Shown one piece after another: positions 26,989 through 64,000 of a stretch of 64,000 nt of DNA (position 1 is the stretch's first letter; every line of letters starts with the position of its first letter). This DNA comes from an uncultured Nitrospiraceae bacterium (GTDB taxonomy: Bacteria; Nitrospirota; Thermodesulfovibrionia; Thermodesulfovibrionales; UBA6898). Under the pieces are notes generated by a model. It searched no databases, was not told where the DNA came from, and was given only the letters and a program-made list of their open reading frames with translations. Made by a program: the position numbers and the translations under genes. The stretch spans positions 352,001 through 416,000 of the forward strand of contig CAWEQH010000008.1 in NCBI GenBank assembly GCA_963811165.1, written 5' to 3'.

Positions 26989-27263
26989 AAGAAAACTCTT
27001 TTCTCTTTTTCAATTTTCTCATCGAAGAGCATACACAGTGCGTCATATGACAAAACGCAATTATTCAATCCTCTCTATTTTACAGGATAAAGAAACTCTA
27101 GACTATAGCGCCTCTCATTCAGGCACCCCTTATCCCCCGGGAACCACTAACATTAAAGCACACCGGACAGCGACAGGTCTATTTTCAATGCAATAGCCGA
27201 CCACCTTTTAGTTGCCTTTGGTTATGAACAAATGCTGACTGGGAGAGAGGCGGAAGTTGCCTT

Positions 27264-28082: not shown

Positions 28083-28229
28083 TAAAGTAAAATAGCACGA
28101 GAAATGAGAACGTGTCAATCCAAACGGACGATTTTGTCATCGCACCCCCCTTGCATTTCGAGGACCTTTACGGGTGCGGATATGTAGATAAAACAGACGC
28201 AAAAATTGTATGATTATACTAACCGCAAG

Positions 28230-30163: not shown

Positions 30164-30190
30164 GATCTATATTCACACTCTTTCCGGCGG

Positions 30191-37211: not shown

Positions 37212-37646
37212 CTATTTCACCACCGCAGAGCCCACGATGGGATCGAGCTCGATGCGGACGGTTTTTTTTGAGTTCCAAAGGACAATTGTGCCGCCCTGGG
37301 TTCCGCCGGTGGGAGGAAAATCGAACTGATATTTGCCCGTCTGGACGTCACCCTGCAGCGGGTCAACTACCTTGATGGAAATCCCCGGGGGGATGTCCCT
37401 TGAGGTGACGTTATCAATCCCGAATTTGTGCGCTTCCATATCTATCGTGAGAGTCTGTTTTTCGCCTTTTAATTGTGCCAGGGTCCTGGCATGACGAATA
37501 GAGGCGACCATTTCCCTCGTCGTTGCGCTGAATTTACTTGAAGGCAGCGAATTGGAAAAAAGGACTGCGACCAAAGAAAGCGTCAAGCCGATAAGAAACA
37601 TCACGACGATCAGTTCCAGAAGTGTGAAGCCCTTGTCCTTGTCCAT
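37212..37646 (-). CDS. gspH: Minor pseudopilin GspH
   Basis: KGFTLLELIVV, IRHARTLA, FPPTGGTQGG. Confidence 0.82.
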   Translation of the reverse strand: MDKDKGFTLLELIVVMFLIGLTLSLVAVLFSNSLPSSKFSATTREMVASIRHARTLAQLKGEKQTLTIDMEAHKFGIDNVTSRDIPPGISIKVVDPLQGDVQTGKYQFDFPPTGGTQGGTIVLWNSKKTVRIELDPIVGSAVVK

Positions 37647-37659
37647 TATATTATGTTTC

Positions 37660-38853: not shown

Positions 38854-40391
38854 TATACCTCCTGTGTTACCCTGAGTACCTCGCTGAGAGTTGTGGTCCC
38901 TTCCCTTATCTTTTCAATACCGTCTTCCAGAAGAGTTCGCATCCCGTGCTGCTTGGCCGAGTCTCTGAGCTGGTTGGAGTCAGCGCTCTTGAGGATCAGT
39001 CTGCGGACGTCGTCATCCACAAGCAGCAGCTCGAAGATCCCCAACCTGCCGAAGTAGCCTGTATAGGCACAGTGTTCGCAGCCTTTTCCCGTATAGATAG
39101 TAACATCACTGCTGATCCCGAGCTTCTCGAGACCTTCCCTGTCGGCGGACGTGTCCACCGTCTTACAGGATGGGCAGATGATCCTTACAAGCCTTTGCGC
39201 GAGAATTCCCCTGACGGTAGAGGACAGGAGAAAATTCTCGACCCCCATATCCAGCAGCCTCGTGATGGCAGTCGGCGCGTCGTTCGTATGCAGCGTCGAA
39301 AAAACAAGATGGCCTGTCAGTGCAGACTGGATCGCTATCTCGGCGGTTTCGAGGTCCCTGATCTCGCCGATCATGATGATGTCGGGGTCCTGCCTTACGA
39401 TATGGCGCAGCGTGCTGGCAAAATTCAGGCCGATCTGAGGCTTGACCTGGATCTGGTTTACTCCCTTGAGCTGGTATTCGACAGGGTCCTCAACCGTGAT
39501 TATCTTTCTGTCCGGCGAGTTTATCTTGTCGAGCGCGCCGTAAAGGGTTGTTGTTTTTCCGCTGCCGGTCGGACCGGTGACAAGTATGATGCCGTTAGGT
39601 TTTGTGATGACCTGGTTGAAACCTTCGAGAGTTGCCTGCGGAAAACCGAGAAGATCGAGATCTACTACGATGCCTTCTTTATGAAGTATCCTCATGACTA
39701 TGCTCTCTCCGTGCATAACCGGTATGGTCGAAACCCTGAGGTCGACTTCTTTCGTGCCTACCTTGAGCTTTATCCTGCCGTCCTGGGGGAGTCTTCTCTC
39801 GGCGATATTGAGCTTTGCCATGATCTTTAACCTCGAAACTATCGCAGCCTGCAGTTTCTTCGGCGTGGATTCGGTTTCGTGCAGGACACCGTCTATGCGG
39901 TACCTGACCTTCAGTTCATCCTCGAAGGGTTCTATATGGATATCGCTCGCCCTGCTCTCGATCGCCCTGGTCAGCACGAGGTTGACGAGTCTGATGATCG
40001 GCGCCTCCGAGGCGAGGTCTTTCAAATGCCCGACATCTTCCTCTTCCTCCTTGACGAACTCAAACCCCCTCTCCCCCATGTCCTCGACTATCTTGTTTAT
40101 GTTTTGGGGCTCGTTGCCGTAAAACTTGGCTATATAATCGCTGAGGGCCTTTGGATCGGCGGCATACACCGTAACCTCTGCCGAGGTTGCCACCCTCAGG
40201 GCATCGATAGTCTGGCCGTCTTCGGGGTTTGCCATCGCCACCTTCAGTCTGTTTTGCTTGAGTTCCAGAGGAACGATCAGGCTCTCTCGAATAAAACGGG
40301 AAGATATACCGTTCAGGACAAAAGGGACCTTAGGCAGGTCTTCGGCCATCAGAAAGGGACTATTTACCGCGGCGGTATCTGAATCGGACAT
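38853..40391 (-). CDS. gspE: Type II secretion ATPase GspE
   Basis: ASDIHIEP, RLPQDG, GPTGSGKTTT, EDPVEY, RQDPD, GEIRD, TLHTN; CPSC/CEHC zinc motif. Confidence 0.95.
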   Translation of the reverse strand: MSDSDTAAVNSPFLMAEDLPKVPFVLNGISSRFIRESLIVPLELKQNRLKVAMANPEDGQTIDALRVATSAEVTVYAADPKALSDYIAKFYGNEPQNINKIVEDMGERGFEFVKEEEEDVGHLKDLASEAPIIRLVNLVLTRAIESRASDIHIEPFEDELKVRYRIDGVLHETESTPKKLQAAIVSRLKIMAKLNIAERRLPQDGRIKLKVGTKEVDLRVSTIPVMHGESIVMRILHKEGIVVDLDLLGFPQATLEGFNQVITKPNGIILVTGPTGSGKTTTLYGALDKINSPDRKIITVEDPVEYQLKGVNQIQVKPQIGLNFASTLRHIVRQDPDIIMIGEIRDLETAEIAIQSALTGHLVFSTLHTNDAPTAITRLLDMGVENFLLSSTVRGILAQRLVRIICPSCKTVDTSADREGLEKLGISSDVTIYTGKGCEHCAYTGYFGRLGIFELLLVDDDVRRLILKSADSNQLRDSAKQHGMRTLLEDGIEKIREGTTTLSEVLRVTQEV

Positions 40392-47930: not shown

Positions 47931-49250
47931 TCATTTGCCTGATCCGTCCAGAGTTTCCTCATCTTCGACGACGAGCACGACTTTCGGGCCGCCAGGCAGT
48001 GATCTTACCGCCGGTTCGGCGGTAACGACCCCGGCTTTCTCCTCGAGGCGCGGCAGACAGATCGTGAATATCGTGCCTTTTCCCTCTTCGCCCGAAACCA
48101 CTATCTTCCCCTGGTGCTGTTCCACGATCCCGTAGACCGTGGAGAGACCGAGGCCGGTCCCCTTGTCTTTTTCCTTTGTCGTGAAAAACGGGTCGAATAT
48201 AAAGGGCCGTGCGCTTTCAGGTATCCCGGTACCCACATCGCTCACAGAAAGCAGCACGTAACTGCCCGCGGGGATCCCCGCATATCTGGCGGCCGCCTCA
48301 ACGCCGAGATCACGCCCGGAGGTCTCTATCGTCAATTTGCCGCCAGCGGGCATAGCATCACGTGCGTTTAAGGCCAGGTTAATGATTATCTGCTCCATCT
48401 GGGTAGGGTCGGCCCTTACAGTTCCGATATCCGGGGCCAGGAGCGTCACAAGCTCGATATCTTCTCCTATCAGACTCTCAAGCATCTTGCGGATGCCCTT
48501 GACACAGTCATTTAGGTTCAGCACGCGCGGCTCGATGATCTGCTTTCGGCTGAAAGCCAGAAGCTTGTGGGTCATCTCCGCCGCCTTCAGCGCCGAGCCG
48601 CTTATCTTCTGCAAAATCTTGTACTGTGCATCTTCGGGCTTGAGCTTCCGCATAAGGGTCTCCGAGAACCCGATAATCGCGGTCAGATAATTGTTGAAAT
48701 CATGGGCGACGGTACCGGCGAGTCTGCCTATCGACTCCATCTTTTGCGACTGGTAAAGCTGCTCTTCGATCCGCTTTCTCCGGGTGATGTCGGAGATTAA
48801 GCCGTCGTAAGCGACAAGACGCCCGTCTTTGTCGCAACGGGGGACGGACGTGTTCCTGACCCAGCGAATGGAACCGTCTTTATGGATTATGCGGTGTTCG
48901 ATTGCGGGCACAATCTCGCCGGACAGCACTTTTTCGGTCTGTCCCATTACCGCGTCTCTGTCGGGTTCGTAGATCATCCTGTACCAAAGGTACGGGTCTG
49001 AGGCATATTCCTCGGGTGAGTAGCCGGTCAGGTCGACGCAGCCTGCTTTGTGGGAAGTGGCGACGGGAACCCCGTTCTCTATCGTAACTGTGTATATATA
49101 GTCTGTCACAGATTCCAGTAAGCGCTTACACCTTTTTTCACTCTCGATCAGTTTTTCTTCGGCCCGGTTGCGTTCCGACACTTCATGTTCAAGCTCCTCG
49201 TTGAGCCTCCGGATTTTCTCCTTGGCCGCCGTGCGCTTCGCTACCATCAA
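47931..49250 (-). CDS. PAS sensor histidine kinase; C-terminal receiver truncated
   Basis: [45 protein letters not shown]; stops 7 aa after VLVVEDE. Confidence 0.85.
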
Positions 49251-49430
49251 CTCCGGTTCCTCTTTGGCCTTCCGGAGGGTCTCTTCACCCTGTTTGCAAT
49301 CGAAGAAAGTCGTAATCCCAGTCCTAATTTCATTTGCCTAAAGGCGCTCCTTCTTTTTCGTTAACGCCGTTATGTCCCCAGAGTAGAGACATATTCACTA
49401 TATTTATATAGTAGCTCTTTTGTTGTGTAT

Positions 49431-49486
49431 GTCAAATTGCTGACGTTCCGACGGTCTACTTATTATCACACTGTCATTTCCTTGAC
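49431..49486. promoter_or_regulatory. Two GTCA-N6-TGAC palindromes (candidate enhancer sites)
   Basis: GTCAAATTGCTGAC at 49431-49444 and GTCATTTCCTTGAC at 49473-49486, 42 bp apart. Confidence 0.6.
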
Positions 49487-49540
49487 GCCGGCAGCTGTGC
49501 CGTCATCCCGCAATAGCCTGAAATGCCATTGTTTTTGGAC

Positions 49541-49556
49541 TGGCACAGCATTTGTA
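49541..49556 (+). promoter_or_regulatory. Putative sigma54 promoter of fliA
   Basis: TGGCAC-AGCAT-TTGTA about 30 bp before the ATG; -12 reads GT rather than GC. Confidence 0.55.
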
Positions 49557-49584
49557 AATATTCGGCATATAGTAAGGAGGGACC

Positions 49585-50346
49585 ATGCAGGAATATAGAA
49601 CAGAAACGTGTGAAGAAGAGAAAGAACAGACCCTTCGCGATTTTTTACCGTTCATAAAATATACTGCCAGCAGACTGGCCTGGCGGCTTCCGCCCCAGCT
49701 CACGGCGGACGACCTTGTCAGCGCGGGCATGCTGGGCCTACTCGATGCCTTGGAGAAATACCAACGCGGCAGGGCCAAGTTAAAGACTTACGCAGAGTTC
49801 AGGATCAAGGGATCCATGCTCGACGAACTGAGGGCGGTGGAGTGGATGCCGAGATCTATAAGAAAAAAGGTGAATACCCTTAAGAAGGCCTATGCCGAGC
49901 TCGAAATAGAATTCGGCAGACCGCCTGAGGACGAGGAAGTCGCCGGGGCGCTGAACCTCACGCTCGACGAATATTACAGAACTCTCGGCGACGCAAACGG
50001 CGCGATTGCGTTCAGGTTTGAGGACTTCGAGGGCAACGGCTATGCGGAGGACGGACTGAACATCCTGGAGTGTATCCCGGACCCCAACGGATGCAATCCC
50101 CTTACCGCCCTGGAAGAGAAGGCCCAAAAAGAGCAGGTTGCAGATCTTATTGATGAACTGCCCGAGAAGGAGAGGCTGCTCCTATCTCTTTACTACTGGG
50201 ATGAACTTACCATGAACGAAATAGGCAAAATTATGAGACTGACCGAGGGAAGGATCTGTCAACTGCACAATCAGGCGCTGATAAGGTTGAAGGCGAAAAT
50301 GGAGGGCGCCAATGACGCTAAAGAATGTACGGTAAAGACCCGATAA
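49585..50346 (+). CDS. fliA: RNA polymerase sigma-28 factor FliA/WhiG
   Basis: DDLVSAGMLGLLDA, TYAEFRIKGSMLDELR, LYYWDELTMNEIG, TEGRICQLH. Confidence 0.93.
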   Translation: MQEYRTETCEEEKEQTLRDFLPFIKYTASRLAWRLPPQLTADDLVSAGMLGLLDALEKYQRGRAKLKTYAEFRIKGSMLDELRAVEWMPRSIRKKVNTLKKAYAELEIEFGRPPEDEEVAGALNLTLDEYYRTLGDANGAIAFRFEDFEGNGYAEDGLNILECIPDPNGCNPLTALEEKAQKEQVADLIDELPEKERLLLSLYYWDELTMNEIGKIMRLTEGRICQLHNQALIRLKAKMEGANDAKECTVKTR

Positions 50347-50546
50347 ATGGGTCTGATGACGCAGCCGGGGAAAATTATGTTTCTGATTAAGGACTGGCTT
50401 GAGCAACTTCTAGCGCCGATGACTTGAGCCTCTTTGAAGATGTGTCGGTCGATGCGCACGGCCAGGTCGGAGTTCACCAAGACAGTCAAGACCCCGACCT
50501 GCTGGATGACTCCGGGTTTCAAGCGAACGGGAGATATATATCGATC

Positions 50547-51602
50547 ATGGTAAGGGTACTAATAGTAGACGATTCCGCCTTTATGAGAAACATCCTCTCC
50601 ACCATGCTTTCCTCCGACCACGAAATCTCGATAGTTGGTACCGCCCGCGACGGCCGGGAGGCGATCGAAAAGGTCGAAAAGTTAAGACCCGACGTCGTCA
50701 CCATGGATGTCGAAATGCCTAAGATGGACGGGATAACGGCCCTCAGACATATTATGGACAAGACCCCTGCGCCTGTCATTATGCTCAGTGCCCTTACGAG
50801 CGAAGGCGCAAAGGCGACGCTCGACGCGTTTGACCTTGGTGCAGTCGACTTTATACCAAAAAACCTTTCAGAACTTTCGATAAACATCGTAAGGATCAGG
50901 GAGTTGCTTCTCGATAAGGTGAAACAGATAGGGATGAAGGGGCTTGTGAGGAGACCCAAGGCCCAGGGCACTTGTACCGTCAGGCCGGCGATTCCCGTGA
51001 AAATGGCGCACCGGGTTGGAAGCACGGGCGAAAGGAGTATCTGGATAGTGGCGATCGGCTCGTCGACCGGCGGTCCGCGTGCCCTCCTGGACATCATACC
51101 CAAACTGCCGAAGGACTTCCCTTGCCCGATCGTGATCGCCCAGCATATGCCGCCGAATTTTACCGGCCCCTTTGCGCAGAGGCTGAATCAGGTCAGTAAT
51201 ATAACGGTGAAGGAAGCTGAAGAAGGTGAGGGACTCAAGCCCGGGGTCGCAGTGGTCGCGCCGGGCAGCGGACATATGAGGGTGAAGAGGGTGAATGGGA
51301 AGACGGTCGTATGCATAAACGGATATAAGGAGGACTTTATTTACCGTCCCTCGGTAGACGCCCTTATGTCCTCTGTCGCGGAGTTCTTTCCGGGCAGGGC
51401 ACTGGGCGTGATACTGACGGGTATGGGCAATGACGGTCTCAAAGGGCTTATCAAACTGAAAGAAACCGGCGGGAGGATATTGGCACAGGACGAGGGGTCC
51501 TGCGTTGTCTACGGCATGCCTAAGGCGGTCGTCAACGCCGGCATTGCGAATAAGGTCCTTGCGATAGATGCGATCGCAGGCGAGATAGTCAACTCTGTTT
51601 AG
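50547..51602 (+). CDS. cheB: Chemotaxis methylesterase CheB
   Basis: REC VLIVDDSAFMR; GSSTGGP, QHMP, RPSVD, LTGMGNDG, VVYGMP. Confidence 0.96.
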   Translation: MVRVLIVDDSAFMRNILSTMLSSDHEISIVGTARDGREAIEKVEKLRPDVVTMDVEMPKMDGITALRHIMDKTPAPVIMLSALTSEGAKATLDAFDLGAVDFIPKNLSELSINIVRIRELLLDKVKQIGMKGLVRRPKAQGTCTVRPAIPVKMAHRVGSTGERSIWIVAIGSSTGGPRALLDIIPKLPKDFPCPIVIAQHMPPNFTGPFAQRLNQVSNITVKEAEEGEGLKPGVAVVAPGSGHMRVKRVNGKTVVCINGYKEDFIYRPSVDALMSSVAEFFPGRALGVILTGMGNDGLKGLIKLKETGGRILAQDEGSCVVYGMPKAVVNAGIANKVLAIDAIAGEIVNSV

Positions 51603-51625
51603 TCGTGTCCTGTCCCTGATTATTT

Positions 51626-52495
51626 GTGATGGCAAAGAACTACAGAAGCGCCAATGAGCCAGCGATAATGTCCAAGAAGGATTTCCGCATGCTGGCCGAA
51701 TTCATTCATTCGGAGTGCGGCATAAGGATGCCGGACTCGAAAAAGGTGGTGCTCGAGACGAGGCTCAGACGAAGGCTCAGGGTCCTCGGCATGGACTCAT
51801 ACGCCAGATACTGCGATTACGTCTTTAGCCCGGAAGGTACCGAGCGCGAGCTTTTCCATATGATCGATACGGTCACTACGAACAAGACTGATTTTTTCCG
51901 GGAGCCGCGGCATTTCGAATATCTGACCGGTACGGTGCTGCCTGAGATGGTCCGGGCGAAAGGGACCGGGATCAGAACGAAACTGATGGTCTGGTCCGCT
52001 GGATGCTCCACAGGGGAAGAACCCTACACCCTGGCGATGGTACTGAGCGATTTTGCAGAGGGATGGCGCGGGTTTCATTTCATGGTCCTCGCAACGGACA
52101 TTTCCACCCAGGCACTCAATAAGGCAAAAAACGCCATCTACGAAGAGGAGAGGGTCGAACCTGTCCCATGGGAGATGAAAAAGAAATATCTCCTTCGGAG
52201 CAGAGACAGGAGCAAAGGTCTTGTGTGCATCACGCCGGCCTTGAGAGAGACGGTGAAGTTCCGGAGGTTGAATTTTATGGAAGGGGACTTCGGAATGAGA
52301 GAACCGCTCGATATAATATTTTGCAGGAATGTGATCATTTATTTTGACGCACCCACTCAGGAAAGATTGCTGAACCGTTTCTGCAATCACCTAAATGGAG
52401 GCGGCTACATATTCGTGGGACATTCCGAAACGCTGCATAAGCTGGATGTCCCGCTGCTCCAGGTTTCCCCGACGGTCTACAGGAAGATTTTATGA
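51626..52495 (+). CDS. cheR: Chemotaxis methyltransferase CheR
   Basis: TTNKTDFFRE, WSAGCSTGEEPYT, ATDIS, IFCRNVIIYF, GHSE. Confidence 0.96.
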   Translation: MMAKNYRSANEPAIMSKKDFRMLAEFIHSECGIRMPDSKKVVLETRLRRRLRVLGMDSYARYCDYVFSPEGTERELFHMIDTVTTNKTDFFREPRHFEYLTGTVLPEMVRAKGTGIRTKLMVWSAGCSTGEEPYTLAMVLSDFAEGWRGFHFMVLATDISTQALNKAKNAIYEEERVEPVPWEMKKKYLLRSRDRSKGLVCITPALRETVKFRRLNFMEGDFGMREPLDIIFCRNVIIYFDAPTQERLLNRFCNHLNGGGYIFVGHSETLHKLDVPLLQVSPTVYRKIL

Positions 52496-52575
52496 AGCGC
52501 TTTTACCATAACCTAAAGACTGTCTATCTCAGACCCTGCGAGGTATATATCAGTCTGAAGGAGCCTGCACTCTAA
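52492..52575 (+). pseudogene. cheD: CheD N-terminal stub (27 codons)
   Basis: ATGA overlap with cheR. Reads MKRFYHNLKTVYLRPCEVYISLKEPAL*, like the CheD start (YLxPGE..S.EP), but stops before T-x-LGSC. Confidence 0.6.
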
Positions 52576-52596
52576 AGACATGGTTTCTCTTTGGGC

Positions 52597-52623
52597 TAAA
52601 GTAATTAACAAATATGCCGATAA
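52597..52623 (+). promoter_or_regulatory. Sigma28 promoter of flgM
   Basis: Exact TAAA-N15-GCCGATAA. Confidence 0.9.
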
Positions 52624-52654
52624 AAAAGGAAACATCTCTCACAGGAGAGTCGGA

Positions 52655-52945
52655 ATGGGGCTTTACAAAAATAAACCCTCGGAAGGGCAGATTGTTCACG
52701 TCGCGGCCCGGAGGGTAGGTAAAAATGATCCTGCACTGGAAAAATGCCCATTCGGTGAAGAGGGCACTGACAGTATAAATCTTTCAGGGATATCCAGGGT
52801 AGGGAGCGAGCGGAAAACCGCCCTTGCGCAGTTGCCGGAAATCAGGTGGAGCAAGGTCCTGGCCATCCAAAAAGCATTGGTCGAAGGGACGTATGAGATC
52901 GATTCGCGGAAGATAGCCGCAGTGTTGATCGATGAAGCGGTATGA
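52655..52945 (+). CDS. flgM: Anti-sigma-28 factor FlgM
   Basis: DSINLS, LPEIRWSKVLAIQKALVEGTYEIDSRKIA; AGGAG RBS; sigma28 promoter. Confidence 0.85.
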   Translation: MGLYKNKPSEGQIVHVAARRVGKNDPALEKCPFGEEGTDSINLSGISRVGSERKTALAQLPEIRWSKVLAIQKALVEGTYEIDSRKIAAVLIDEAV

Positions 52946-53361
52946 TGCCAGATGAAGCCGTTATAAAGATATTGAACGAGCAGATAAATGTGTACAAGAT
53001 GCTTGTTGATCTGCTTCAGAGGGCCTGTCTTCCCGAACTAAACGGCTTGGGTGTCGAGGCGCTTTCAAAGGAGAAGGACACCTTGATTACGAGGTTGAGA
53101 CTTTTGGAGGAAAAGAGGATGAGGCTTTTCATGAAGCATTTTAACGGTGATGTCAGCCTCCAGAAGCTGGGCGAACTGACCGGAGATGATATCTTCATGG
53201 AGATACGATCGAAACTGCTTTCCCTTCTTCAGAGTATCGAGGAATTGAATCAATTCGACGGGCTGGGGCATTTTCTCAACTATATAAAATTAGAGACCAC
53301 GGTGGGTTTTTTGGGGCTTTCCGGCCGGAATAGGGGCGCGGGTGCTGACATTTCAAGGTAG
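52942..53361 (+). CDS. flgN: FlgN-like flagellar export chaperone (possibly degenerate)
   Basis: Helical protein coupled to flgM (ATGA); LNEQINVYKML, LEEKR, ELNQ. Confidence 0.65.
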   Translation: MMPDEAVIKILNEQINVYKMLVDLLQRACLPELNGLGVEALSKEKDTLITRLRLLEEKRMRLFMKHFNGDVSLQKLGELTGDDIFMEIRSKLLSLLQSIEELNQFDGLGHFLNYIKLETTVGFLGLSGRNRGAGADISR

Positions 53362-53456: not shown

Positions 53457-53945
53457 TTAGCCCAGGAGGGAGGCAACTTTTTTGACGAGGGAAAGGATCA
53501 ATCTGTGCCGCGAGAGCTTCGACGGACGGATGAACCTCCTGGCTATGAGCCAATTGAACGGGAATTTCAGATGGAAATTATAGCGCGAAGACCTTACCGC
53601 CCTGCCCATCACATCTTCAAACGGAGTGAACCCATCATCGCCTTCGACAGCGTCACCCCTCGTAATTATGCCATGCCCCGTAATCTTTATGACCCTGTGC
53701 AATACGAGTCGGCCCTCCCAGTTCCGTAAGAAGGCGATATCGCCCACCCGCAACGATTTGCCGGGTTGTATCTCCACGTTGTCTCCATGCTTAATGAAAG
53801 GTGACATGCTGCTCCCGCCTGCCACAAAGACAAGGCCTTTGCCGCTTCCGAGCACTTCTTGAGCTATGTCATGGAAGTTTTCCCTGCCGATGTCGAACAT
53901 GCCCGATGGTAATCCCTTTTGGAAAAGCGCCATGTATTTCCTCAT
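53457..53945 (-). CDS. S24/S26-family peptidase-like protein
   Basis: GSSMSPFIKHGD (Ser), VGDI, LHRV, TRGDA; no N-terminal membrane anchor. Confidence 0.82.
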   Translation of the reverse strand: MRKYMALFQKGLPSGMFDIGRENFHDIAQEVLGSGKGLVFVAGGSSMSPFIKHGDNVEIQPGKSLRVGDIAFLRNWEGRLVLHRVIKITGHGIITRGDAVEGDDGFTPFEDVMGRAVRSSRYNFHLKFPFNWLIARRFIRPSKLSRHRLILSLVKKVASLLG

Positions 53946-54862
53946 CCCGAGACGAACCCTTCAAGCAAGTCCGCCGCCTTCTGGTCCGGTGTGAAGTGAA
54001 GATCATAGGAAGGTACGGCCGAGACCAGTTTACTGCAAAACGCAAGGATCATCGTCAGTGTCCCAGCGTCGTACCATGGTATGGTAGTTACCGGCATAAG
54101 CCGCTCCAGCGCTTCATTAGGACCTATAGCCACAATCCTGTTTGTTTCGCTCTGCATCAGAAAGTATATCCCCGTGAGTGGAAGGTCCTTATTTATAGCA
54201 ATGCCTGCATCGCCCGGCCATGGCGTTCCGAAGGCCCTGAAACCTTCCCCGACCTTCCTGACTATCACGCGGTCATCACTGAGCGCCTCGTGCCCAGCCG
54301 AAGAAAGGAGCCTTGAAATTGTGCTTTTCCCTGCGCCGGATTTTCCCGGAAAAAGACAACCTTGTCCGCCCACGTCAGCGAAGGAGGAGTGGAACAAGGC
54401 CCCTTCCCTATGTGCGAGCACGTACATCATCAATAGTTGATCCAGCGGATAGATCAGAGGATTTCTGACCATCTTTTTGCCTTCAACTTCCACAATGGTC
54501 ATGTCACCGCAATAGATGGTCACTTTTTCGAAGGCGCGATCAAAGCGGGCCACGCATTCCGGACCACCGGGTAAAGAAGGGTTTAGGACCAAATAATATT
54601 CGGCTCCCTTTTTACACATGGCCCATGAATCGCCGCATCTGAAGATTTCCGTCAGCTGCCCGGTGCGGGGAAGGTCTTTTATTTTCAGGTCTACAGGAAT
54701 AGGCTGAGCCCCTGCGTCACGGATGTCTGCGCTTGCAATAAAGGGCTCATACGTTGCCGGGTTGGGCTCAATCAGTAATGGCATATCTACAGAGCGAATG
54801 AGGAAGCTAATATCCGCGATCGATATTCTCATCGAGCGCGAGCTGCGGTCCATTACAGGCAT
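53942..54862 (-). CDS. HPr-kinase-like P-loop protein (ScmC-like)
   Basis: LFHSS, GKSGAGKST, LSDDR, GTPWPG. Start uncertain (54862 or 54832). Confidence 0.8.
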   Translation of the reverse strand: MPVMDRSSRSMRISIADISFLIRSVDMPLLIEPNPATYEPFIASADIRDAGAQPIPVDLKIKDLPRTGQLTEIFRCGDSWAMCKKGAEYYLVLNPSLPGGPECVARFDRAFEKVTIYCGDMTIVEVEGKKMVRNPLIYPLDQLLMMYVLAHREGALFHSSFADVGGQGCLFPGKSGAGKSTISRLLSSAGHEALSDDRVIVRKVGEGFRAFGTPWPGDAGIAINKDLPLTGIYFLMQSETNRIVAIGPNEALERLMPVTTIPWYDAGTLTMILAFCSKLVSAVPSYDLHFTPDQKAADLLEGFVSG

Positions 54863-54881
54863 CGGATGACCACGTTGGCCA

Positions 54882-55064
54882 TTAAGATCCATACGCTCCA
54901 GGCACGGAACAAGGCGAAAAACCGCACGATCCGCCATTTTTCCCGGGCGCTCCATTAGTTGATTTGCAGTTGACAGCCAGCACTTCTTCGGCAGCCAGCG
55001 GTATGGTCCTCAATCTTGGTTTGTCATAGGGCTGTTTGGAGATTTTTTCTTTCTTCTGTTTCAT
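54882..55064 (-). CDS. Putative RiPP precursor peptide (60 aa)
   Basis: MKQKKEKISKQPYDKPRLRTIPLAAEEVLAVNCKSTNGAPGKNGGSCGFSPCSVPGAYGS: YxxPxL leader motif, Gly/Ser/Cys-rich C-terminus, AAGGTGA RBS. Confidence 0.8.
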   Translation of the reverse strand: MKQKKEKISKQPYDKPRLRTIPLAAEEVLAVNCKSTNGAPGKNGGSCGFSPCSVPGAYGS

Positions 55065-56160
55065 GATCATCACCTTTCGATAAACGGTTTATTATGCGTC
55101 GATAACGAAGCTCTCCCATCTTGCAGATATAGTCGGAGAGTATGTCCTCCGACCCGCTTTCCAGTCTGAAAAAAGAGGGACAGTAGCCGCAGAGATTTAT
55201 TTTTTCGCAGCCCCTGCATGCGAACCCGGTACCTGCTTTTTTTCTTCTTATCCGAACTGTGATATCGTCCCAGCCAGCGGAGAACCCGCCTCCGGAGATG
55301 TCGTTCTGAATATCCAGAGTCATCATACAAGGTTGAAGCATGCCGTAAGGGTCGACATGGAAACCGGTCACCCCGGCCCCGCACCCGTACAGGTCATCAG
55401 TCAATATATGCCCCTTCATTCCTTGAAAGAAATTTTCCCAGAGACGGACCCGCTTAGGGTCGGAAAATTCCCTTTCTATTGCCTCCTCGGGGGAGACCCT
55501 GAGACCCAGGGGCGCTTTGTCCCCGTCTGTACAGGGTGATATCGCCGCGTCGAACCGGAACCGGACGCCTAATCCCTCGGCGATATGCTGCATTTCTAAT
55601 AATTCATGACTGTTTGTTGTCATGAGTATCGTCTTGAGATTTACCTTTATGTTATTTTCCAGGAGCCGCCTTATCCCCAGCAAACACCTTTCGTAAGAGC
55701 CTTCGACCCCCGTTACTTCTTCATATGTGCGTGCAGTGGCCCCGTAAAGACTTATCTCCACTAGAAGGGGGGGGAGGTCCCTAAATAGCCCGATGACTTC
55801 ATCCGTTACCAGAGTGCCATTGGAGAAGACCGTGATCAAGAGCCCTTTTTCCTTTGCATTCCGGTAAATCTCCGGAAAGTCTGTCCGCAAAAGGGGCTCC
55901 CCGCCGGTGATAAGCAGGTTCAAGCACCCTGCCTCTGCAATTTCATCGAGCAAAGAAATAATCCTTGCGGTGCCCATTTCACGCGACTGTCGTTTCCGCC
56001 TTGAATCATCCCCTCCCAAATAGCAATGAACGCATCTGAGGTTGCAGCGATAGGTGATCTCAAGGCTTCCTGAAAGGGGTATATGATCTCTCGCAGACTT
56101 CAGGTAGAACTCGTTCATGTATTCTGCGGCAGTGGGCCATTTTCCATCCGGGCACTGCAT
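55024..56160 (-). CDS. Radical SAM/SPASM domain protein (peptide maturase type)
   Basis: CNLRCVHC, TGGEPL, ISLYG; SPASM CGAG..PC..CRGC...CGYCP..C. Confidence 0.92.
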   Translation of the reverse strand: MQCPDGKWPTAAEYMNEFYLKSARDHIPLSGSLEITYRCNLRCVHCYLGGDDSRRKRQSREMGTARIISLLDEIAEAGCLNLLITGGEPLLRTDFPEIYRNAKEKGLLITVFSNGTLVTDEVIGLFRDLPPLLVEISLYGATARTYEEVTGVEGSYERCLLGIRRLLENNIKVNLKTILMTTNSHELLEMQHIAEGLGVRFRFDAAISPCTDGDKAPLGLRVSPEEAIEREFSDPKRVRLWENFFQGMKGHILTDDLYGCGAGVTGFHVDPYGMLQPCMMTLDIQNDISGGGFSAGWDDITVRIRRKKAGTGFACRGCEKINLCGYCPSFFRLESGSEDILSDYICKMGELRYRRIINRLSKGDDHETEERKNLQTAL

Positions 56161-56162
56161 CT

Positions 56163-56483
56163 TCAGCTTGTCCCTTCATGGATCAGCCCCGCTTCCAGGA
56201 GCTCCGCAATAAACTCCTGAATGTCGGAGTCGGCCTGTTCCTTGCCCACATCGAACCTGGCGATAATATCGTCACGGATCTCATTCACCTTTTTTTTGCC
56301 GTCCAGACCGTCCCATATATATGCCGCGACGGGAGTAAGGGTGAAGATATTTTGCATATCGGCCAGCTGCCCTTTGACCGGAACAAGGAACAGTTCCCCG
56401 CCTATCCTGCGGGAGACGACATCCTTGTCGGGCAGAAATACCTTGCCCCATATGTCGCTATGCGATCGGTGAAACGATTCCAT
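56163..56483 (-). CDS. PqqD-family RiPP recognition element
   Basis: VVSRRIGGELFLVP, FTLTPVAAYIWDGLDG, FDV...DIQEFIAEL...GLI. Confidence 0.9.
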   Translation of the reverse strand: MESFHRSHSDIWGKVFLPDKDVVSRRIGGELFLVPVKGQLADMQNIFTLTPVAAYIWDGLDGKKKVNEIRDDIIARFDVGKEQADSDIQEFIAELLEAGLIHEGTS

Positions 56484-56497
56484 AGTCGTCTTTATCT

Positions 56498-59400
56498 TTA
56501 TCTTAATCTTATCTTAAGCGCCGGATCGCCCAGGATGCCGTATATGTCGGTCATAAAGGGCAGGGAGCCGGTCAGCTTGTATTTTGCGAGTGCCTGTTTC
56601 ACCGCGTCGCCGAGGGTCTTTTTCTTGTCTGTGAAAACGGCCTTATAGAACTCCCTGTTCAGTATTTTAGCCTCTGAGTCGTCTGAGAGTCCAGTGGAAG
56701 ACCATACTGCAGCCGCACCGCCGTTGTCTTTCAAGACAAGCAGACTGCCTAACGTGGAATACCCGGGGATTGCAAATTCACCCGCCGAACATGTCATGGC
56801 AGTCACGATGGGAAGTCCTGCTGCATTTGGCAGAAGGGGCATATCGTCAGTAGTCAGCACCCCCTGTCCTGAAAGCTGGTACGGCGAGGCATGGCCTATG
56901 TAGTTGAAAAATGCCGCCCCGATGCCGAGGTCATTGAAAAGCATGGTTCTTGCGGTGTTGGCAGAGACCTCCGAAAGGTATACCTTTTCCCTTATATAGT
57001 TGTAAGGGAAAAGGGCCGCCAGCCCTTCGCTTTCGGCTGTAAAATCCCCTGCCTCGTCGGGGTTGTCGGCAAGCAGGATTATCCGGTTGCCCTTGGTCTT
57101 CTCAAAGTTCTTTATGTTGGTTATGGCATTCTGCAACTCCTTGGGCGTCAGCGCCGGCAGTCTCCCTATCGCCATCTCGGGCAGATGGTTCCCATTTATA
57201 TCGGCCAGAGAATTGTCGGATGTGGCCAGACCGTATAACGACGGGACCAAAGCCGGAGGGATCAGGTTCCAGCCGAACCCCAGGTTATCCCTGTAGTCCC
57301 ATGTGCCCTCTCCGGCCAGGACCACGTATTGCGGCGCTTTCTTCCAGTTGGAATACGCATACGAAAGGAACTTCCTGATGGCGTCCGGGCTTGAAAGACC
57401 GAAGTTGAATTCGTTCATGATATCATCGAGATTTACTGACCATGGTTTTTAGTCCCTGTGATGTCCTGTAATCCGCAAGGGGTTTGGCGGCTGAGGCCAG
57501 TTCCGACGGGGCTATCACGATGTAGTCGGCCGCGTTACTCCTCGCCTGCAGATTCGATGGGTTGACCGCCTCGGCGTTAACGACCTTAGTGACAGCATCT
57601 GCCGCTACCGACATATAAAGCGCTCCCGGTGAAACAGGGGTCAGGCTGACCTGCCAATCGCCGGTAGTGCCGGTAACAACGGCAGAGGTGTTCAGTTTCG
57701 GCAGTTGTTGGTTCGCAATGTCCAAGACAAGTATGTCCGGAGTAGCCGAAGTGAACCCTCCGATACTTACGCTTTTGTTGCCGTCTCCCCTGAAGACCAG
57801 CTCATTGCCGTCTGTGTTATATAATCTTTTGTATTTGAGGTCGAAGGAGTCTATGAGATCATAACTCCAGGGGACTCCTGCATCGAGCAGACCAGCCACC
57901 TCAAGCGTATTATTCCCCTCGACAATCAAAGACTGAGAGAAAGAAGCGGTCAGGGTATAGGCGTCCAGGCCGCTCCATAGTCCTTCACCTATCTGATGAT
58001 CGTTTAGCTTCACCACCACATGATGGTCGGGAGTCATTCCGGTGTCCGATCCGCCAAGGAGATGCAGCTGCAGGGTGGCCATCTCCTGAGTCTCCGCTTT
58101 CCCGGTTACCTGGAACGAAAGTTCTTTTGGAAGGTCTGAGTAAGCAGGGCTGAGGTAGATGCCCGTCCAGGCCCACAGGTCCGCCTCAGGGTCGGTGAAC
58201 TGGCCGAGGTTCGGGATCATGTCCTGTTCGAGGTGCAAGGTGTCTGTGAAGGTCTCATCCCCCGTTACAGGGACAGGCTTCGGCCGGTCTCGTTGGTCAT
58301 GGGCGTTCCCTTGCCGCTATCGATCCAGTATATGTTATCACGGGTATACACATTGTCCGTCCCAACGCCGTAGAAGAAGATGCCGGTGTTGTTCTGTGCA
58401 GGCAGATAGGCAACCTGCTTGCCCTGGCTGCTCATGGACAACTGGTTGTTTTTGATCATGGCAGAGGCTTTTGCGTAGCTGATACCCAGCATGGATGAGA
58501 TATCGTTTGCATCCACGTAATAGAGCCCATTGTCCGTAATAGGGATCTTTATGCGGATTCCGGTCTGTTTCGTATTGGGGTCCTTTACCGATCTTTCGAA
58601 AGAGTCCCGTGACTGTAAGCGGGCCTTCTCTGAGACCGACAGTCCACGGGGCTCTCTGGTGTAGTCGGACGAAGAGGAGGCGTTTACGCCGGCTGACCTT
58701 GCCGCACTGCTCTTGAGTGCCTGAGAGCCGATAACATCTCCGCCTCCGACCACGATGGAGAAGGGGCCGTATATGATTCGATTGCCGCTCTTTTCAACCT
58801 CGACAAGCTTGTACTTATAGGCTCCGCCAGGTGAAGCATCCCTGTCGATAAGTGTATATGTTCCGCCATTAGGCGACGTGAGCATCCCCGGCAGCAGGCC
58901 CTCTGTCACACTCTGGTATTTACCTGTGGCAGGGTCAAGTCTCTGCAGGTAAAAGCCCAGCGTATTGTTCTCCAGCGTCGTCTCCCACTCCACCACCACC
59001 TGGCCGTTAAGCTCATGGGCACTGAAGGAGGAGAGGACCACCAGAGTCGGAGCAGCAGGACTGTAGTACCCAAAATTGACCCCGCTCTGATTGCCGCCGC
59101 CAAGGTTTACCGTCTCCTGGCCGTTGAAAGGACCTGTTGTGCCCTCGGTCTTCTCATAGGAAGTGGAGAAACCCGTCAGCACGCCTGCCGCGTCCGTAAT
59201 TTTGATCGTATAGGTGCCGCTGGCCAGGCCATTAAAAATGTAAGTGCCGTCTGAAGCAGTGGCTGTTGTGGCGACAACAGTGCTGTTTTGTAACAGATCG
59301 ATAGTTACCCCGGCCAGCCCGCCTTCTCCGCTGTCGATTGCCCCGTTATCGTTGCTGTCTTGCCATAAAGTACCTGACACGCTCCGGGGGGTCGTTGCCC

Positions 59401-62400
59401 GATAGCCGAAATTTTCTGTCAGGACACTAACCCCGCCGCTAATGATATATCGCTTGCTGCTGGCCGCACCTTCCTGCATCGCTGTCTGTCCCGGTGAATG
59501 TATACCCAGTCAACGGGGTCTGCGGGGAGCCGCTTACGCATTCGATACTCACGATATAATTTCCATCGCTCAGACCGGAAAAGATGTAGTTGCCGTTTGC
59601 ATCAGTAGTAAGGGTGGCAACAACTCGTCGCTACCGTCTATGCGCCGAGTTCCGGAATCGGTATATAACTCACTGTAATTCCGCTGAGGCCGGGCTCGCC
59701 GGCAATCCTGGGCACCGTTGCCGTTCATATCATTAAATACCGTATAGCCGATCGCCCTTTTCAGGCTGTACCCGAAGTTGGGGGCAGAAGAGTAATCAAC
59801 ATTGCCCGCAAGATTGACGATCTGTTTTGAGCCGGTTACCGCAGAGGTGGTCGTGCCGTAGTAGTTGGCGAGCTTTCCGCCTGTGTCGGTGATCCTGACG
59901 GTATAGTCCGCCCCGCCGCCGGTAAGCCCCGAAAATGTGAATAAGCCATTGGCGTCAGTCGTCGTATTTGCAATGGCATTGAGACTCGCATCGAGCAGGT
60001 CCACAGTCACATAGGGTATCCCGGTTTCACCGGCGTTAAAGACGCCGTTGCCGTTGGAATCGGACCAGACGCGGTCGGTGATGGTATAGGTCGATGCGCT
60101 ATGGTAGCCGAAATTGGCAAACAGGACGACCTCGCCTGAACTGAGGTCCTGTATAAGTAAGGGATTGCCGGACGGCGCGGTCCTCGTATACCCTGAAAGC
60201 TTCGTCTGGGTTTCATCGATTCGCAGGAAGTAGTCATTCGTGCCGTTGGCTGTGACACCGGTAAACAGATAGCTTCCGTCCGGCGCGGTAGTAACGGTAC
60301 TTACTTTCGTATCGGTTGCAGGATTGAATATCCGGTCACCGTTGTCCAGCCAAAGCTCTACGCTCACACCGGCCAATCCGGCTTCGCCCGCATCGCGAGT
60401 CCCGTTACTGTTTGCGTCGCTCCAGGCGTAATTGCCGATGGCCGCAAAACCCGCAGCCGATTTATACCCCAGGTTCGCGTTCGTAAGAGACTGACCGGCG
60501 GTAAGATTGAAGGTGTTCGTGCGGTTGTCCGTGTGGCCTGATGGCGCCGATTGCTGCAACCCGGAGGGAATGGTCCTAGGGGTAACCTCCACGTAGTAGC
60601 CGTTACCTGGCTCCATGCCGGTAAAAAGATAATGTCCTGTGGAGTCTGTCGTTGTCGTCATGACCGTGGCACCAAGCCAGTCCTTCAGGGTCACCTCCAC
60701 ATTACCAGTCCCGGTTCGCCTATATCCTGAGCGCCGTTGCTGTTTGAGTCAAGCCAGACCCGTCCCCCCGCTTCCGCGCTCTGTGAAGAAGGGTTCACGA
60801 CCAGATTCGTAACACTGGCGCTGACAGGCAAAGTAATTCGATTGCAGTTACTAAAGCGGTATTGGTTATCTGGTCAATTCCAGCGGCAAGGGGATTGTCT
60901 ACTGTGACATTATAAGTGAGCGTCAATGTGCCGACCTGCCGGCAGCGTATACCCAACGCCCTTGGTAAGCAGCTCCGGCGGAGCGTTCGGCTGGATATCG
61001 ACGTGAAAATTATCTGCGTAGAAGTAATGACCCGTGTTAGTGTACCCAGCCGAAACTACCAGTCTGACTCTGGTGTTGCTGCGAAAAGTATGTCGCAGGG
61101 ACGGAAAAACTTAGTTGCGTGAATGCAGTAAAGCGCCCCGATAAAAGTGGCAATGTTGTTCCAGGTGGTACCGTTCGTTGAGACATCTAAAGTAACGGTG
61201 TCCCCGGTCCCGGCACCTGTTTGACTACCATCGAAGATTATTGAGGCGCTGCCAGCCGATGAAAGATCGACACTGCGCTGTATTCCCCACGGACGAGTCA
61301 TGCCGTTAGCATCCTCGAAAACGCAGTTGCCCGCCTGTTATCCGCACTTGTCCACCGCCAACGTTATTGTCATCATTTATTTCAGTCCAGTTCGAGGCCC
61401 ATGTGCAGCTTGCCGTTATTGTTCGTATAGACACTGATAGTGAAATTGTCCAGAAAACTGCATATCGGTGACGCCTGGAGCACTACCTGCCACATAACTC
61501 ACGTCCAGATGGCAAAGGATCGTAGAGAGAAACACCCGTAACGGAATACCGCTGTGGATTCGTCACCGTAACGTATAGGTAAACTGGTTGCCTGGATACA
61601 GGGGATTCGTTGCATTAGAGGTCTTTGTGACCGTAAGATTGCCAAAAGTATTAAAAGCGAAATCCGAAGCGACAAACGTTTGGCTTGCTCCTGCCACGGT
61701 CCTGGTGCCGCTCGCCTGCACCACGTTGCGGGTGATATCGCCTACGGCGAAAATCTGCGTAGTCTGTGCAGTGAACGTGATGGTGATCGTCTGGTTCGGC
61801 GCCATATTGCCGAGCATACTGCTGGGCCAGGTCAGGATCAAATTGCCGCCGCTAATCGTGGGATTTGCGCGGCGCCGCTTATTGTGGTCATAGTCCGCCA
61901 GGGTGATCGTCGTGCTCTTGTTGACATACTGCCAGCCCGTTGGCAAAGTATCGATCACACTGATCCCATTTACATCAAAGTGATAAGAATTAACCACGAG
62001 GGTATAAGTGGATTGCGAACCCGATGCTGTTGCGACCACGACCGGGTTTGCGGATTTCTGGACTGTGAGCACCTTGTCGATAAAATCGCCGCCGGGGAAT
62101 GAGACATAACCCAGATCAATGGCCGGTGTTCCTGTAGGTGCTGTATCCGGATTTTGACCGTATGCGATCGCAATGGGACCGGTTGCCCAAACATGGCTGT
62201 TAGACATATCCCCGTCAGTCGCATCATACACGTATTGGGTCTGTAAGCGGTTAAGCGTATATGTATGATCGGCAACTCCATCATGATTTCTATCGACAAA
62301 GACCCGGGTATTGTCCTGGACAGGGGTGATAAAGATTCCTGAGTCATCGTAATCTCCCGCGGGGATAGGCGTACTGGTATGCCCCGGGAGCCCATCCGAA

Positions 62401-63627
62401 GAAATGCTCGTTGCCGAGCAGAAATGACGGGACAAGGGGATAGCCCCATTCATGGGTTGGTCCTCCGGTGTCGATGGTCGATACACCCCAGAAGACATCA
62501 GTAGCCTTCAGATAGACGCCGGAACCTGCCGGCACATACCCCCCGGTCATCTCGCTGAAAGAGCGTGTCTGTCCAGCGGGAACGCTGAATGAGCCCGAGG
62601 TCGTGCTGGTCTGGTAGTTGATAGTCAGGGCAGAAGACTGCGGGTTAAAGAGATAAAGCTGGGTGGGGAAGTTCAACCCCGCGTCGCTCGGAACAGGGGC
62701 ATAATATTCCTTGTCCCACATGCCGCTCGGAAAGGCGCTGAAGCCCCGGGCCTCAAATGTCGCGGTCTGGTCCCCTACTATGTAGTTTACCTGGAGCGTA
62801 TCTGAGCCCTGTATGACTGCTCCGGTAGGAAGGGATACCGTGCCTGTAGTCGGAAACGGCGCGAAACGATCCAGCAGGAAACTCTCTCCGGCGTTCAGCG
62901 TAACCTGAGTTGCGGTCTGGGTGCAGGGGTTATTGTGACTTATGCAGACAGTATCGCCGAATACCCCGTCCTTATTGAAATCAAAGGTGACAACGGTGTT
63001 ATCTTTTGTTGCCTGAATCAGTGCGAACACCCTTCTGAAATCGAGATAGTTCCGGGGAGCACCATAAAGATCGTCGCCGAAGGGCATGATATACCTGACC
63101 ATCTGCGGCTTGACCGGATAGACCTCCCAGGCCAGAGAAAAAACAGTTCCGTCGGTCTCATCCCAGCTCGAGCGCGTGACAGTTACCACTCCGCCGGCCA
63201 CATAGATGCGGTCGCGGCCGTCATAAAAAGTGGCGGTCCCCCTCGGGTTTACCGGAATGTTGGAGCTTTCAAATATCTTGCTGTCTCCGGCGTTGGCCAG
63301 GACATACTTCTCATCGGCAGTTGCGTCGGGGTTGTTCGGGTCGAAATTATATCCGTTCTCCCAATGGTCGTAGTAGATCGTAGTATCTGGGGACCAGGCA
63401 ACAACGCTGATGATTGTATGCCTGGGAGCGTTTAGGGCAACGGGACCGGCAGCACCGATGTCGGCCCATACCTGTCCCATGATGTTTTCATCACCGGGGA
63501 TGTAGTACTCGGAATAACCTGCAGGGGCAGAGCCGTAGCTGTAAGTCGCGCATGTTAACAGGATTATGAGACTTAATAATAATCCAGGAAGACTAATTAT
63601 CGGGTCCTTTGATCTCTTTGAAAGCAT
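56498..63627 (-). CDS. Giant secreted protein (about 2,350 aa if intact): N-terminal domain, DUF11-like, SdrD-B/Cna-B-like repeats, C25 (gingipain-family) peptidase; broken by many apparent frameshifts
   Basis: GGAGG RBS and signal peptide at 63627. Abutting ORF pieces 62344-63645, 61563-62498, 61056-61301, 59570-60700, 58265-59479, 57423-58238, 56498-57418. Repeats of WxDxNxNGxxDxGExG; ADYIVI, YVVLAG, IGRLP, YIGH, MTC, LGDPAL. Confidence 0.8.
56506..56774. repeat. Direct repeat, copy A (identical to 63732-64000)
   Basis: 269 bp with no mismatch seen on manual comparison; offset 7226 bp. Confidence 0.95.
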
Positions 63628-63729
63628 ACCTATTCCTCCCGTCAATCGAGCACTGCCGATGCGCGATAATGCCTCGTGTTTACATTTATACTGGGTTATT
63701 CATATTTCATTTCTTTTTTTTAATGGTCT

Positions 63730-64000
63730 TTATCTTATCTTAAGCGCCGGATCGCCCAGGATGCCGTATATGTCGGTCATAAAGGGCAGGGAGCCGGTCA
63801 GCTTGTATTTTGCGAGTGCCTGTTTCACCGCGTCGCCGAGGGTCTTTTTCTTGTCTGTGAAAACGGCCTTATAGAACTCCCTGTTCAGTATTTTAGCCTC
63901 TGAGTCGTCTGAGAGTCCAGTGGAAGACCATACTGCAGCCGCACCGCCGTTGTCTTTCAAGACAAGCAGACTGCCTAACGTGGAATACCCGGGGATTGCA
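63730..64000 (-). CDS. 3' end of a second C25-family protein (continues beyond window); direct repeat copy B
   Basis: ..GGAAAVWSSTGLS..TLGDAVKQAL..ILGDPALKIR*, DNA identical to 56506-56774. Confidence 0.9.
   Translation of the reverse strand, partial: AIPGYSTLGSLLVLKDNGGAAAVWSSTGLSDDSEAKILNREFYKAVFTDKKKTLGDAVKQALAKYKLTGSLPFMTDIYGILGDPALKIR

Follow-up and report, generated by a model that had tools for sequence, protein, structure and literature searches.

A conserved cassette predicted to mature a three-cysteine, serine-ended peptide and its recurrent link to PorU-like C25 proteins

Introduction

What is made by five tightly packed minus-strand genes that bring together a stand-alone recognition element for peptides that are synthesized ribosomally and modified post-translationally (RiPPs), a radical S-adenosylmethionine (SAM) enzyme, a short open reading frame (ORF), an HprK-like kinase and a soluble peptidase? 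We addressed this question for a locus at positions 53457 to 56483 of a 64,000-nucleotide stretch of DNA from an uncultured Nitrospiraceae bacterium (here called the window; C8:352001-416000 of a 3.66-Mb genome that is 95% complete). Drawing on characterized pathways, we consider it likely that the locus makes a thioether-bridged peptide with a phosphorylated terminal Ser, relieved of its leader by the S26 peptidase and probably acting at the cell surface.

Two characterized peptide groups frame the comparison, here through those parts of the source papers that deal with the points named. The linear, polyphosphorylated peptides (LPPs) of Bacillota are encoded by LppA/B/K/S/D/N; a discrete RiPP recognition element (RRE) presents a YxxP leader to the SpI-like peptidase LppS (S29, H68, D93), an HprK-like kinase phosphorylates Ser3, and the clusters are located in capsule loci (PMC13381572). 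HprK-like kinases also act on the C-terminal Ser of the lasso peptides paeninodin and pseudomycoidin, and PsmN is needed to place a hexose on the phosphate (PMC6993621). The roles of LPPs and of phosphorylated lasso peptides are described there as unknown (PMC13381572).

Results

An earlier annotation made from the letters of the window alone (the sequence-only reading) had placed five packed genes at this position, and we found them there, all uninterrupted and with gaps or overlaps of only a few bases. The first on the minus strand is a PqqD-type stand-alone RRE of 106 amino acids (aa) (56163 to 56483; PF05402, E 7.6e-17), the sole PqqD match in the genome. It is followed by a 378-aa radical SAM/SPASM enzyme, the predicted peptide maturase (55024 to 56160; PF04055, E 9.5e-24), by the 60-aa precursor peptide (54882 to 55064), by the HprK-like kinase (53942 to 54862, in a frame open from 54955; PF07475, E 1e-6, below its cut-off) and by a peptidase of the S24/S26 family that resembles S26 and SipW (53457 to 53945; PF00717, E 2e-5; TIGR02228, E 1e-9, below cut-off). 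The set proposed from this one locus recurs in 33 of 61 related genomes, and dozens of environmental bacteria keep the cassette. With the enzyme as bait, matches appeared in 34 of the 61 relatives, one of them weak and lacking the cassette; a single-protein scan of genome contigs gave only three distant loci. Every cassette gene except the radical SAM family is single copy in the genome, the GC content equals that of the remaining window, and a 10-kb contig from an independent run that covers the cassette shows 103 differences and one gap. Promoter and terminator predictions were no better than those for shuffled sequence (8 versus 8.3 and 7 versus 10.3). We therefore read the five genes as a single conserved cassette for the maturation of a peptide.

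The radical SAM enzyme carries the cysteines of both its domains: CxxxCxxC at residues 39 to 46 and, in a SPASM-type domain, the invariant C260, C278, C315, C318, C324, C327 and C346, all kept in 78 homologues. Among its solved relatives the sactisynthase SkfB comes first (E 8e-26; the next reaches E 2e-14), the epimerase YydG is among the weaker ones, and no NCBIfam model reaches its cut-off. At E 1e-20 the family comprises 2,467 clusters, not all of them in cassettes. A distinction set as a test beforehand, between a peptide enzyme and a heme enzyme of the Ahb type, came out on the peptide side. The AhbD model gave 113 bits (cut-off 500) for the cassette enzyme versus 448 for the genome's own AhbD-like paralogue, and a quick tree, from which 34 of 105 rows were omitted because their contigs were too short to label, put cassette enzymes on one side of a branch with Shimodaira-Hasegawa approximate likelihood ratio test (SH-aLRT) support of 94 and five paralogues on the other. 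A heme enzyme (AhbC, AhbD or NirJ) is excluded by this score and by the separate side of the tree.

The precursor, one of a family of 560 database proteins (560 precursor clusters), has a charged N terminus, a YDKPRL leader motif and AEEVLA, followed by a core with Cys33-Lys34, Cys47, Cys52 and a terminal Gly-Ser. Its start had been put at 55073; the ATG at 55064 is most likely the true one, as a Met stands in that register in 26 of the 27 closest homologues. The family pattern is [YW]xxPx(L/I/V)xx(I/V)xLxxEE, a hydrophobic residue, Cys-Lys, a loop mostly of 11 to 18 residues, Cys-x4-7-Cys and mostly 5 to 6 residues ending in Ser. The expectation that homologous loci would carry a short peptide ORF was borne out: the enzyme has a precursor next to it in 32 of 34 genome loci (the exceptions are a contig edge and the weak noncassette match) and in 53 of the 78 metagenome loci, which include many short contigs. 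No core residues are better conserved than the Cys, and the loops between them vary among lineages. A terminal Ser is present in 81 of 86 unique complete matches to a leader-only profile, against 513 of 4,250 background short ORFs (12%), a control that is only partly independent because the leader profile was built from full-profile matches; the count of 119 of 120 listed database homologues is likewise partly circular. Among related-strain contigs, 13 differences are listed inside the precursor gene, 9 of them at third codon positions, including that of the Cys33 codon (manual reading), and the other 4 in the loop. As far as sequence goes, the precursor is a real gene. It has no Pfam or NCBIfam family, and its Atlas neighbours are unnamed clusters. 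We also observed cassettes with three radical SAM enzymes (loci L149-L152, L111, L120, L127 and L130), which have longer Ser-ended precursors and no C25 gene (see below); L111 carries four precursors, and L152 has a lone precursor far from its enzymes.

The kinase and the peptidase both retain the residues needed for catalysis in their known relatives. The His, the Walker A sequence GKSGAGKST and the DD of the HprK-like protein align with those of HPr kinases; the His-Walker motif is kept in 65 of 70 homologues and a DD or DE motif in 69 of 70, and homologue lengths suggest a start near 54862. In the S26 protein, Ser46, His83 and Asp98/Asp104 are conserved (homologues have the Ser in 50 of 53 cases and HR in 53 of 53), and by inspection it has no N-terminal membrane anchor or segment. 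It is predicted to be the leader peptidase, and leader removal by a soluble S26 protein and peptide phosphorylation by the kinase, as proposed in the sequence-only reading, are supported by the LPP pathway as an experimental precedent.

Candidate cut sites for the S26 protein were compared. Signal peptidase cuts follow a small-residue rule. Gly, Ala, Ser or Thr directly precedes the first Cys in 74 of 81 members of a wide set, and the residue at this position in the 27 closest homologues is Asn in 13, Ser in 8 and Lys in 4. A cut directly before the first Cys therefore agrees with the rule in the wide set and not in the closest homologues, and we did not favour it. We also discarded a lipobox at this place, as no hydrophobic helix precedes it. 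Between a site after Glu-Glu-Val and one nearer the first Cys, the former is slightly favoured, because the distance from the leader Tyr and the Glu at -2 are the same as in LPPs. As a separate observation, the S26 gene is 83% identical to its same-genus orthologue, 58 to 60% identical to divergently placed copies in a group of loci without a C25 gene and only 21 to 35% identical to most of its own group (L024, L050, L051, L049 and L046 were compared); because its identity is higher to the other group than to its own, it was likely swapped between cassette types. In some loci the S26 domain has a fusion partner, either a Wza-type polysaccharide export protein, with which it shares one open frame, or a GNAT domain (L102:5272-6678, L109:13142-14590; L041, L043, L072).

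Like the LPP clusters, the cassette combines in one cluster a stand-alone RRE, an HprK-like kinase and a soluble SpI/S26-type peptidase with Ser, His and Asp; like them, it has a YxxP leader in which a Glu stands 15 residues from the Tyr, it lacks a lasso cyclase, it is linked to polysaccharide loci, and it has a PF14907-type nucleotidyltransferase, here encoded in trans. Unlike them, it adds a radical SAM/SPASM enzyme, which LPPs lack, and a three-Cys core; it has neither an MsbA-like exporter nor a nucleotidyltransferase in the cluster, and it has a giant C25 neighbour and a Nitrospirota-type host. Radical SAM, SPASM and C25 are not mentioned in the main text of PMC13381572, and Peptidase_C25 and Radical_SAM are two of the 834 column heads of its supplement.

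The claim that a nucleotidyltransferase is absent held within the window and did not hold for the genome. The genome has a single PF14907 gene (C1:676343). It sits on contig C1 between glycosyltransferases that belong to a polysaccharide locus, and a BBP2-Wza-Wzc-Wzy cluster is found about 46 kb away. PF14907 is present in 32 of the 33 cassette genomes versus 6 of the 28 without the cassette, and in three two-genome families (f7, f8 and f12) one genome has both and the other neither. This co-occurrence is a lead and no proof. By manual count, BBP2, Wza, Wzc and Wzy export genes also flank the cassette in 6 of the 13 genome loci that lack C25. Beside these genes we noted an unannotated, Cys-containing signal-peptide protein of 150 to 214 aa with no Pfam match, which occurs near the cassette in 11 loci (L025, L028, L036, L038, L040, L042, L043, L048 and L050-L052) and in this genome before the BBP2-Wza-Wzc genes (C1:620160-620627; L153:4161-4628).

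The gene directly upstream (56498 to 63645, minus strand), 14 nucleotides (nt) from the PqqD gene, had been left out of the sequence-only reading and belongs to the picture. It is a giant C25 gene of about 2,400 codons, present in pieces with Pfam matches in each and colinear with intact orthologues of 2,581 to 2,716 aa. With this neighbour and the nucleotidyltransferase in trans, the label "orphan" was too strong. A C25 gene adjoins the cassette in 18 of the 19 genome loci with an enzyme identity of at least 45% (17 of 19 when only other genomes are counted), and the lone miss begins at a contig edge; the figure for metagenome loci is 31 of 78. The C25 gene lies upstream of, downstream of or inside the cassette, and the tree shows the link on both of its main branches (5 changes). 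All 20 of the 61 relatives with a PF01364 match have the cassette, the match being adjacent in 18 and belonging to other proteins elsewhere in 2. Across 201 genomes of the phylum, 3 have both; the C25 module occurs with no precursor match in 9, of which 8 have no PqqD at all, and in 12 a precursor is present and the module is not. A sister group with 38 to 45% enzyme identity has C25 nearby in 0 of 13 genome loci. The C25 link is tight in the window's own group and recurrent, and it is not obligatory; the thread common to the groups with and without C25 is the cell surface.

Gene identities, intact catalytic motifs, precursor conservation and co-occurrence were observed in this analysis, and all of the chemical steps that follow are taken by analogy. 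PqqD would hold the YxxPxL leader while the radical SAM/SPASM enzyme bridges the three conserved Cys as thioethers; the HprK-like kinase would phosphorylate the terminal Ser, and the S26 peptidase would cut off the leader to yield a small phosphopeptide. The PF14907 nucleotidyltransferase, encoded in trans, would then decorate the phosphate with a sugar, a role like that of PsmN in pseudomycoidin. Of these parts, the identity of the 60-aa peptide as the substrate of the cassette enzymes is, by analogy, close to certain. Phosphorylation of the terminal Ser appears quite probable, a confidence that we extend equally to the S26 protein acting as the leader peptidase. A function tied to surface polysaccharide or surface proteins seems reasonably probable. 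We lean lightly towards a thioether rather than other radical chemistry, and as lightly towards participation of the nucleotidyltransferase.

Several observations weigh against this reading. The NCBIfam model that scores highest for the enzyme is that of MftC, a mycofactocin maturase that decarboxylates (114 bits, well short of its cut-off), and no Asp/Glu or aromatic acceptor is conserved across the precursor family, so that the bond type is not fixed. The terminal Ser is missing from 5 of 86 precursors, and 8 of 82 have only two Cys. The LPP consensus YxxPxVLxHQxIxFETxxS fails here, only YxxP and the Glu matching, and the Ser3 phosphorylation site of LPPs has no counterpart, position +3 being Val and the conserved Ser being terminal. 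No exporter lies within the cassette, and the genome's best MsbA-like match is in a lipopolysaccharide (LPS)-type locus. PF14907 is common in polysaccharide loci and related genomes are not independent, and the profile match therefore overstates the link. Finally, the giant neighbour gene is broken, and this copy of the region may therefore be decaying.

The missing acceptor and the MftC match, together with the odd number of Cys and the presence of YydG among the solved relatives, are in keeping with a different use of the enzyme, in which it would epimerize, decarboxylate or oxidize residues (for example, near Gly-Ser) and the Cys would stay free as disulfide or metal ligands. Against this, SkfB is far ahead of all other solved relatives, the Cys are the most conserved residues of the core, and the cassettes with three radical SAM enzymes have the same Cys pattern. 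We regard such chemistry as the chief rival for this one step, and as rather improbable.

A second alternative is that the peptide is secreted in free form to act as a signal or an antimicrobial, or that it inhibits the C25 protease, and that its association with surface genes reflects shared regulation or an island. The variable core loops, the two to four precursors at some homologous loci, the uneven presence in a single genus (4 of 8 genomes) and the ABC transporter genes in 13 of 113 loci would suit such a role. This genome, however, has one precursor, whose core is nearly invariant in the 27 closest homologues; the cassette has no transporter or immunity gene; and pseudomycoidin and paeninodin are without antibacterial activity in the experiments described in that part of PMC6993621. 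We consider this alternative unlikely. The sequence-only reading had found no ABC transporter in the window, and this needs correcting: a polysaccharide-export-type ABC-2/ATPase pair is present at 28206 to 30160, 23 kb from the cassette, to which it is probably unrelated.

We return to the C25 neighbour. The giant gene encodes a predicted signal peptide, an IgGFc-binding-like region, DUF11 and SdrD-B repeats and, at its end, a PorU-like C25 module (56498 to 58740, minus strand; PF01364, E 5.5e-62). It is disrupted by about nine frame changes; where it breaks near 57436, 58281 and 59447, the contigs of related strains read differently from the window, and the breaks may be assembly errors or recent decay. 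The codons for the module's His (56891-56893) and Cys (56789-56791) are intact, and both residues are invariant in 26 aligned C25 modules. A second giant C25 gene, whose 3' end enters the window (63712 to 64000, minus strand), stands in tandem as an intact frame of 2,480 codons (C8:415730-423172) with DUF11 repeats and an unrelated N-terminal passenger domain; the two copies share a 2.5-kb end that is 98% identical, and their fronts are unrelated. The same tandem arrangement, also with frame breaks, was seen in genome G034 (L030, L137). PorU (PDB 6ZA2) is the best solved relative of the module by sequence, and the relatives include Lys-specific gingipain. The model of the intact second copy (predicted local distance difference test [pLDDT], 88) likewise matched PorU best (E 6.6e-29 over 811 columns), and the module is closer to PorU than to the gingipains.

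In 20-odd orthologues the constant module begins 840 to 940 residues before the end, at a near-invariant Thr that is followed by a domain of fibronectin type III (FnIII) fold, the candidate sorting tag (58740 to 59090, minus strand; model pLDDT, 82.8). This domain starts with Pro-Thr-Leu-Val, where the variable passenger gives way to the constant module, and the Thr is kept in at least 90% of 28 rows. The best fold matches (Z, 9.7) show a generic FnIII fold, and among the matches listed there is no type IX secretion system (T9SS) C-terminal domain (CTD); an Atlas match to Por_Secre_tail proteins (0.82) is a lead only, and the genome has no T9SS CTD or SprA match (no PF18962, no PF14349) in searches whose T9SS controls were silent too. 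Elsewhere, a tag-type domain lies within 60 residues of the C terminus in 31 of 83 other proteins and, among 10 cassette-free loci, adjoins a stand-alone C25 gene in 7, in one of them weakly, and the enzyme and tag therefore form a general unit, which we infer to be a sortase. By manual reading, the cassette-free C25 enzymes have a lipobox or a C-terminal membrane helix in 10 of 10 loci, and most of the fused ones end with the catalytic domain. In loci L139-L148, from genomes without PqqD, stand-alone, membrane-anchored PorU-like C25 genes lie beside separate Thr-FnIII-tagged proteins; these pairs probably represent an unnamed protein-sorting system.

The giant protein, predicted to be exported, may, by analogy with PorU, use the finished peptide for its own fastening to the cell surface. 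In this extension of our proposal, the C25 module would cut its own passenger after the border Thr and join it to an amine of the mature peptide (the new N terminus or the conserved Lys), the phospho-Ser end of which would be tied to surface polysaccharide. The RiPP would then be a structural linker: cross-linked, with its last Ser phosphorylated and glycosylated, it would accept the giant adhesin from a PorU-like sortase fused to that adhesin, and so hold it to the exopolysaccharide. The proximity of C25 in 18 of 19 close loci in several gene orders and on both branches, the PorU-like fold with its invariant His and Cys, and the tandem copies with a common module and different passengers are consistent with this idea, as are the membrane attachments of the cassette-free enzymes, which most fused ones, not extending past the catalytic domain, do not have. 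The border Thr resembles the PT/GI-like consensus at which T9SS cargo is cut, and PorU-type sortases join cargo to free amines, including those of peptides, according to the relevant parts of PMC4560394 and PMC11969387. On the other side are the C25-less sister group, the rarity of both elements together in the phylum, the generic fold of the tag and its many relatives that start with Pro-Leu-Pro-Val and lack the Thr, the PorU model score (209 bits for the intact copy versus a cut-off of 420 for NF033707) and the lack of a known route by which a cytoplasmic peptide would reach an exported enzyme. We rate such anchoring as improbable. The window also holds a type II secretion cluster (17943 to 20318 and 32225 to 40391) with a GspD-like secretin, GspE, F, three pilin-like genes, K, L/PilM-N and M, which is a possible export route for the giant proteins.

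The kinship with Lys-specific gingipain and the invariant Cys-Lys of the precursor raise one further alternative, that the C25 protein and not the S26 peptidase removes the leader after export, for example by cutting after the conserved Lys. The S26 protein has intact Ser and His in both groups, including all 13 genome loci that lack C25, a cut after Lys34 would lose a conserved Cys, the module is nearer to PorU than to the gingipains, and LppS provides a precedent for the S26 protein (PMC13381572, in its account of LppS). Leader removal by C25 is accordingly very improbable.

Discussion

The cassette belongs to neither the LPPs nor the lasso peptides, although its working would be analogous to theirs. 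With the phosphorylated lasso peptides (paeninodin; pseudomycoidin with PsmK and PsmN) it shares a YxxPxL leader, a separate RRE, an HprK-like kinase with DD and a terminal Ser. It differs from them in having no macrolactam cyclase or B2 protease (B2 was looked for in the cassette) and in a core without an Asp or Glu for ring formation. The absence of a lasso cyclase, stated earlier, stands: there is none in the cassette, and across the 95% complete genome PF00733 gave two short matches and no full-length match of the asparagine synthase type. The sactipeptide and ranthipeptide systems (SkfB, CteB, PapB) likewise place a SPASM radical SAM enzyme, among them our best solved relative, beside a short Cys-rich substrate; here the RRE is a separate gene, the models of those families are all far below cut-off, and a kinase and an S26 protein are added. 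SynChlorMet (TIGR04248-04251) is, like our cassette, a bioinformatically defined and uncharacterized combination of PqqD, radical SAM/SPASM and HprK-like proteins. Membership in it, a cassette type named in the sequence-only reading, could not be upheld, as the ScmC, ScmD, ScmE and ScmF models gave 36.5, 45.4, 83.6 and 81.4 bits against cut-offs of 125, 100, 400 and 400, and there is one enzyme in place of the ScmE/ScmF pair. The C25 module resembles PorU (6ZA2, NF033707) in matching its positions 103 to 732 by profile, in its fold, in its intact His and Cys and in a PT-x-aliphatic border like the cut sites of PorU cargo; unlike PorU, it is fused behind its own passenger, and its tag is FnIII-like. 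In the literature searched we found no description of this cassette, although the supplement of PMC10288494, with about 15,000 enzymes, may list the family; PMC13692751, in the part that bears on this question, concerns a different system.

The family adds a radical SAM step and three conserved Cys to a core of chaperone, kinase and peptidase. It is widespread and small enough to be rebuilt in Escherichia coli, and would offer new radical chemistry at the least. What is new here is the genome-level match with PF14907, the swap of passengers between tandem copies and the tally of C25 systems that lack the peptide. Together, the links to C25 and PF14907 make it possible to test directly why peptide genes of this kind gather near those for polysaccharide, and if the anchoring idea were true, this would be a protein-anchoring system outside Bacteroidota with a RiPP as the anchor.

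Two further features of the window complete the description. A small surface-glycan cluster at 24905 to 31156 encodes a de-N-acetylase, a family 4 glycosyltransferase (GT4), a sulfotransferase, an ABC-2 permease and an ATPase. Next to the cassette lies an isolated run of fliA, cheB, cheR, flgM and flgN (47931 to 53361); its PAS histidine kinase (47931 to 49250) ends a few residues into an apparent receiver domain, FlgN looks degenerate, and this flagellar and chemotaxis run is possibly in decay.

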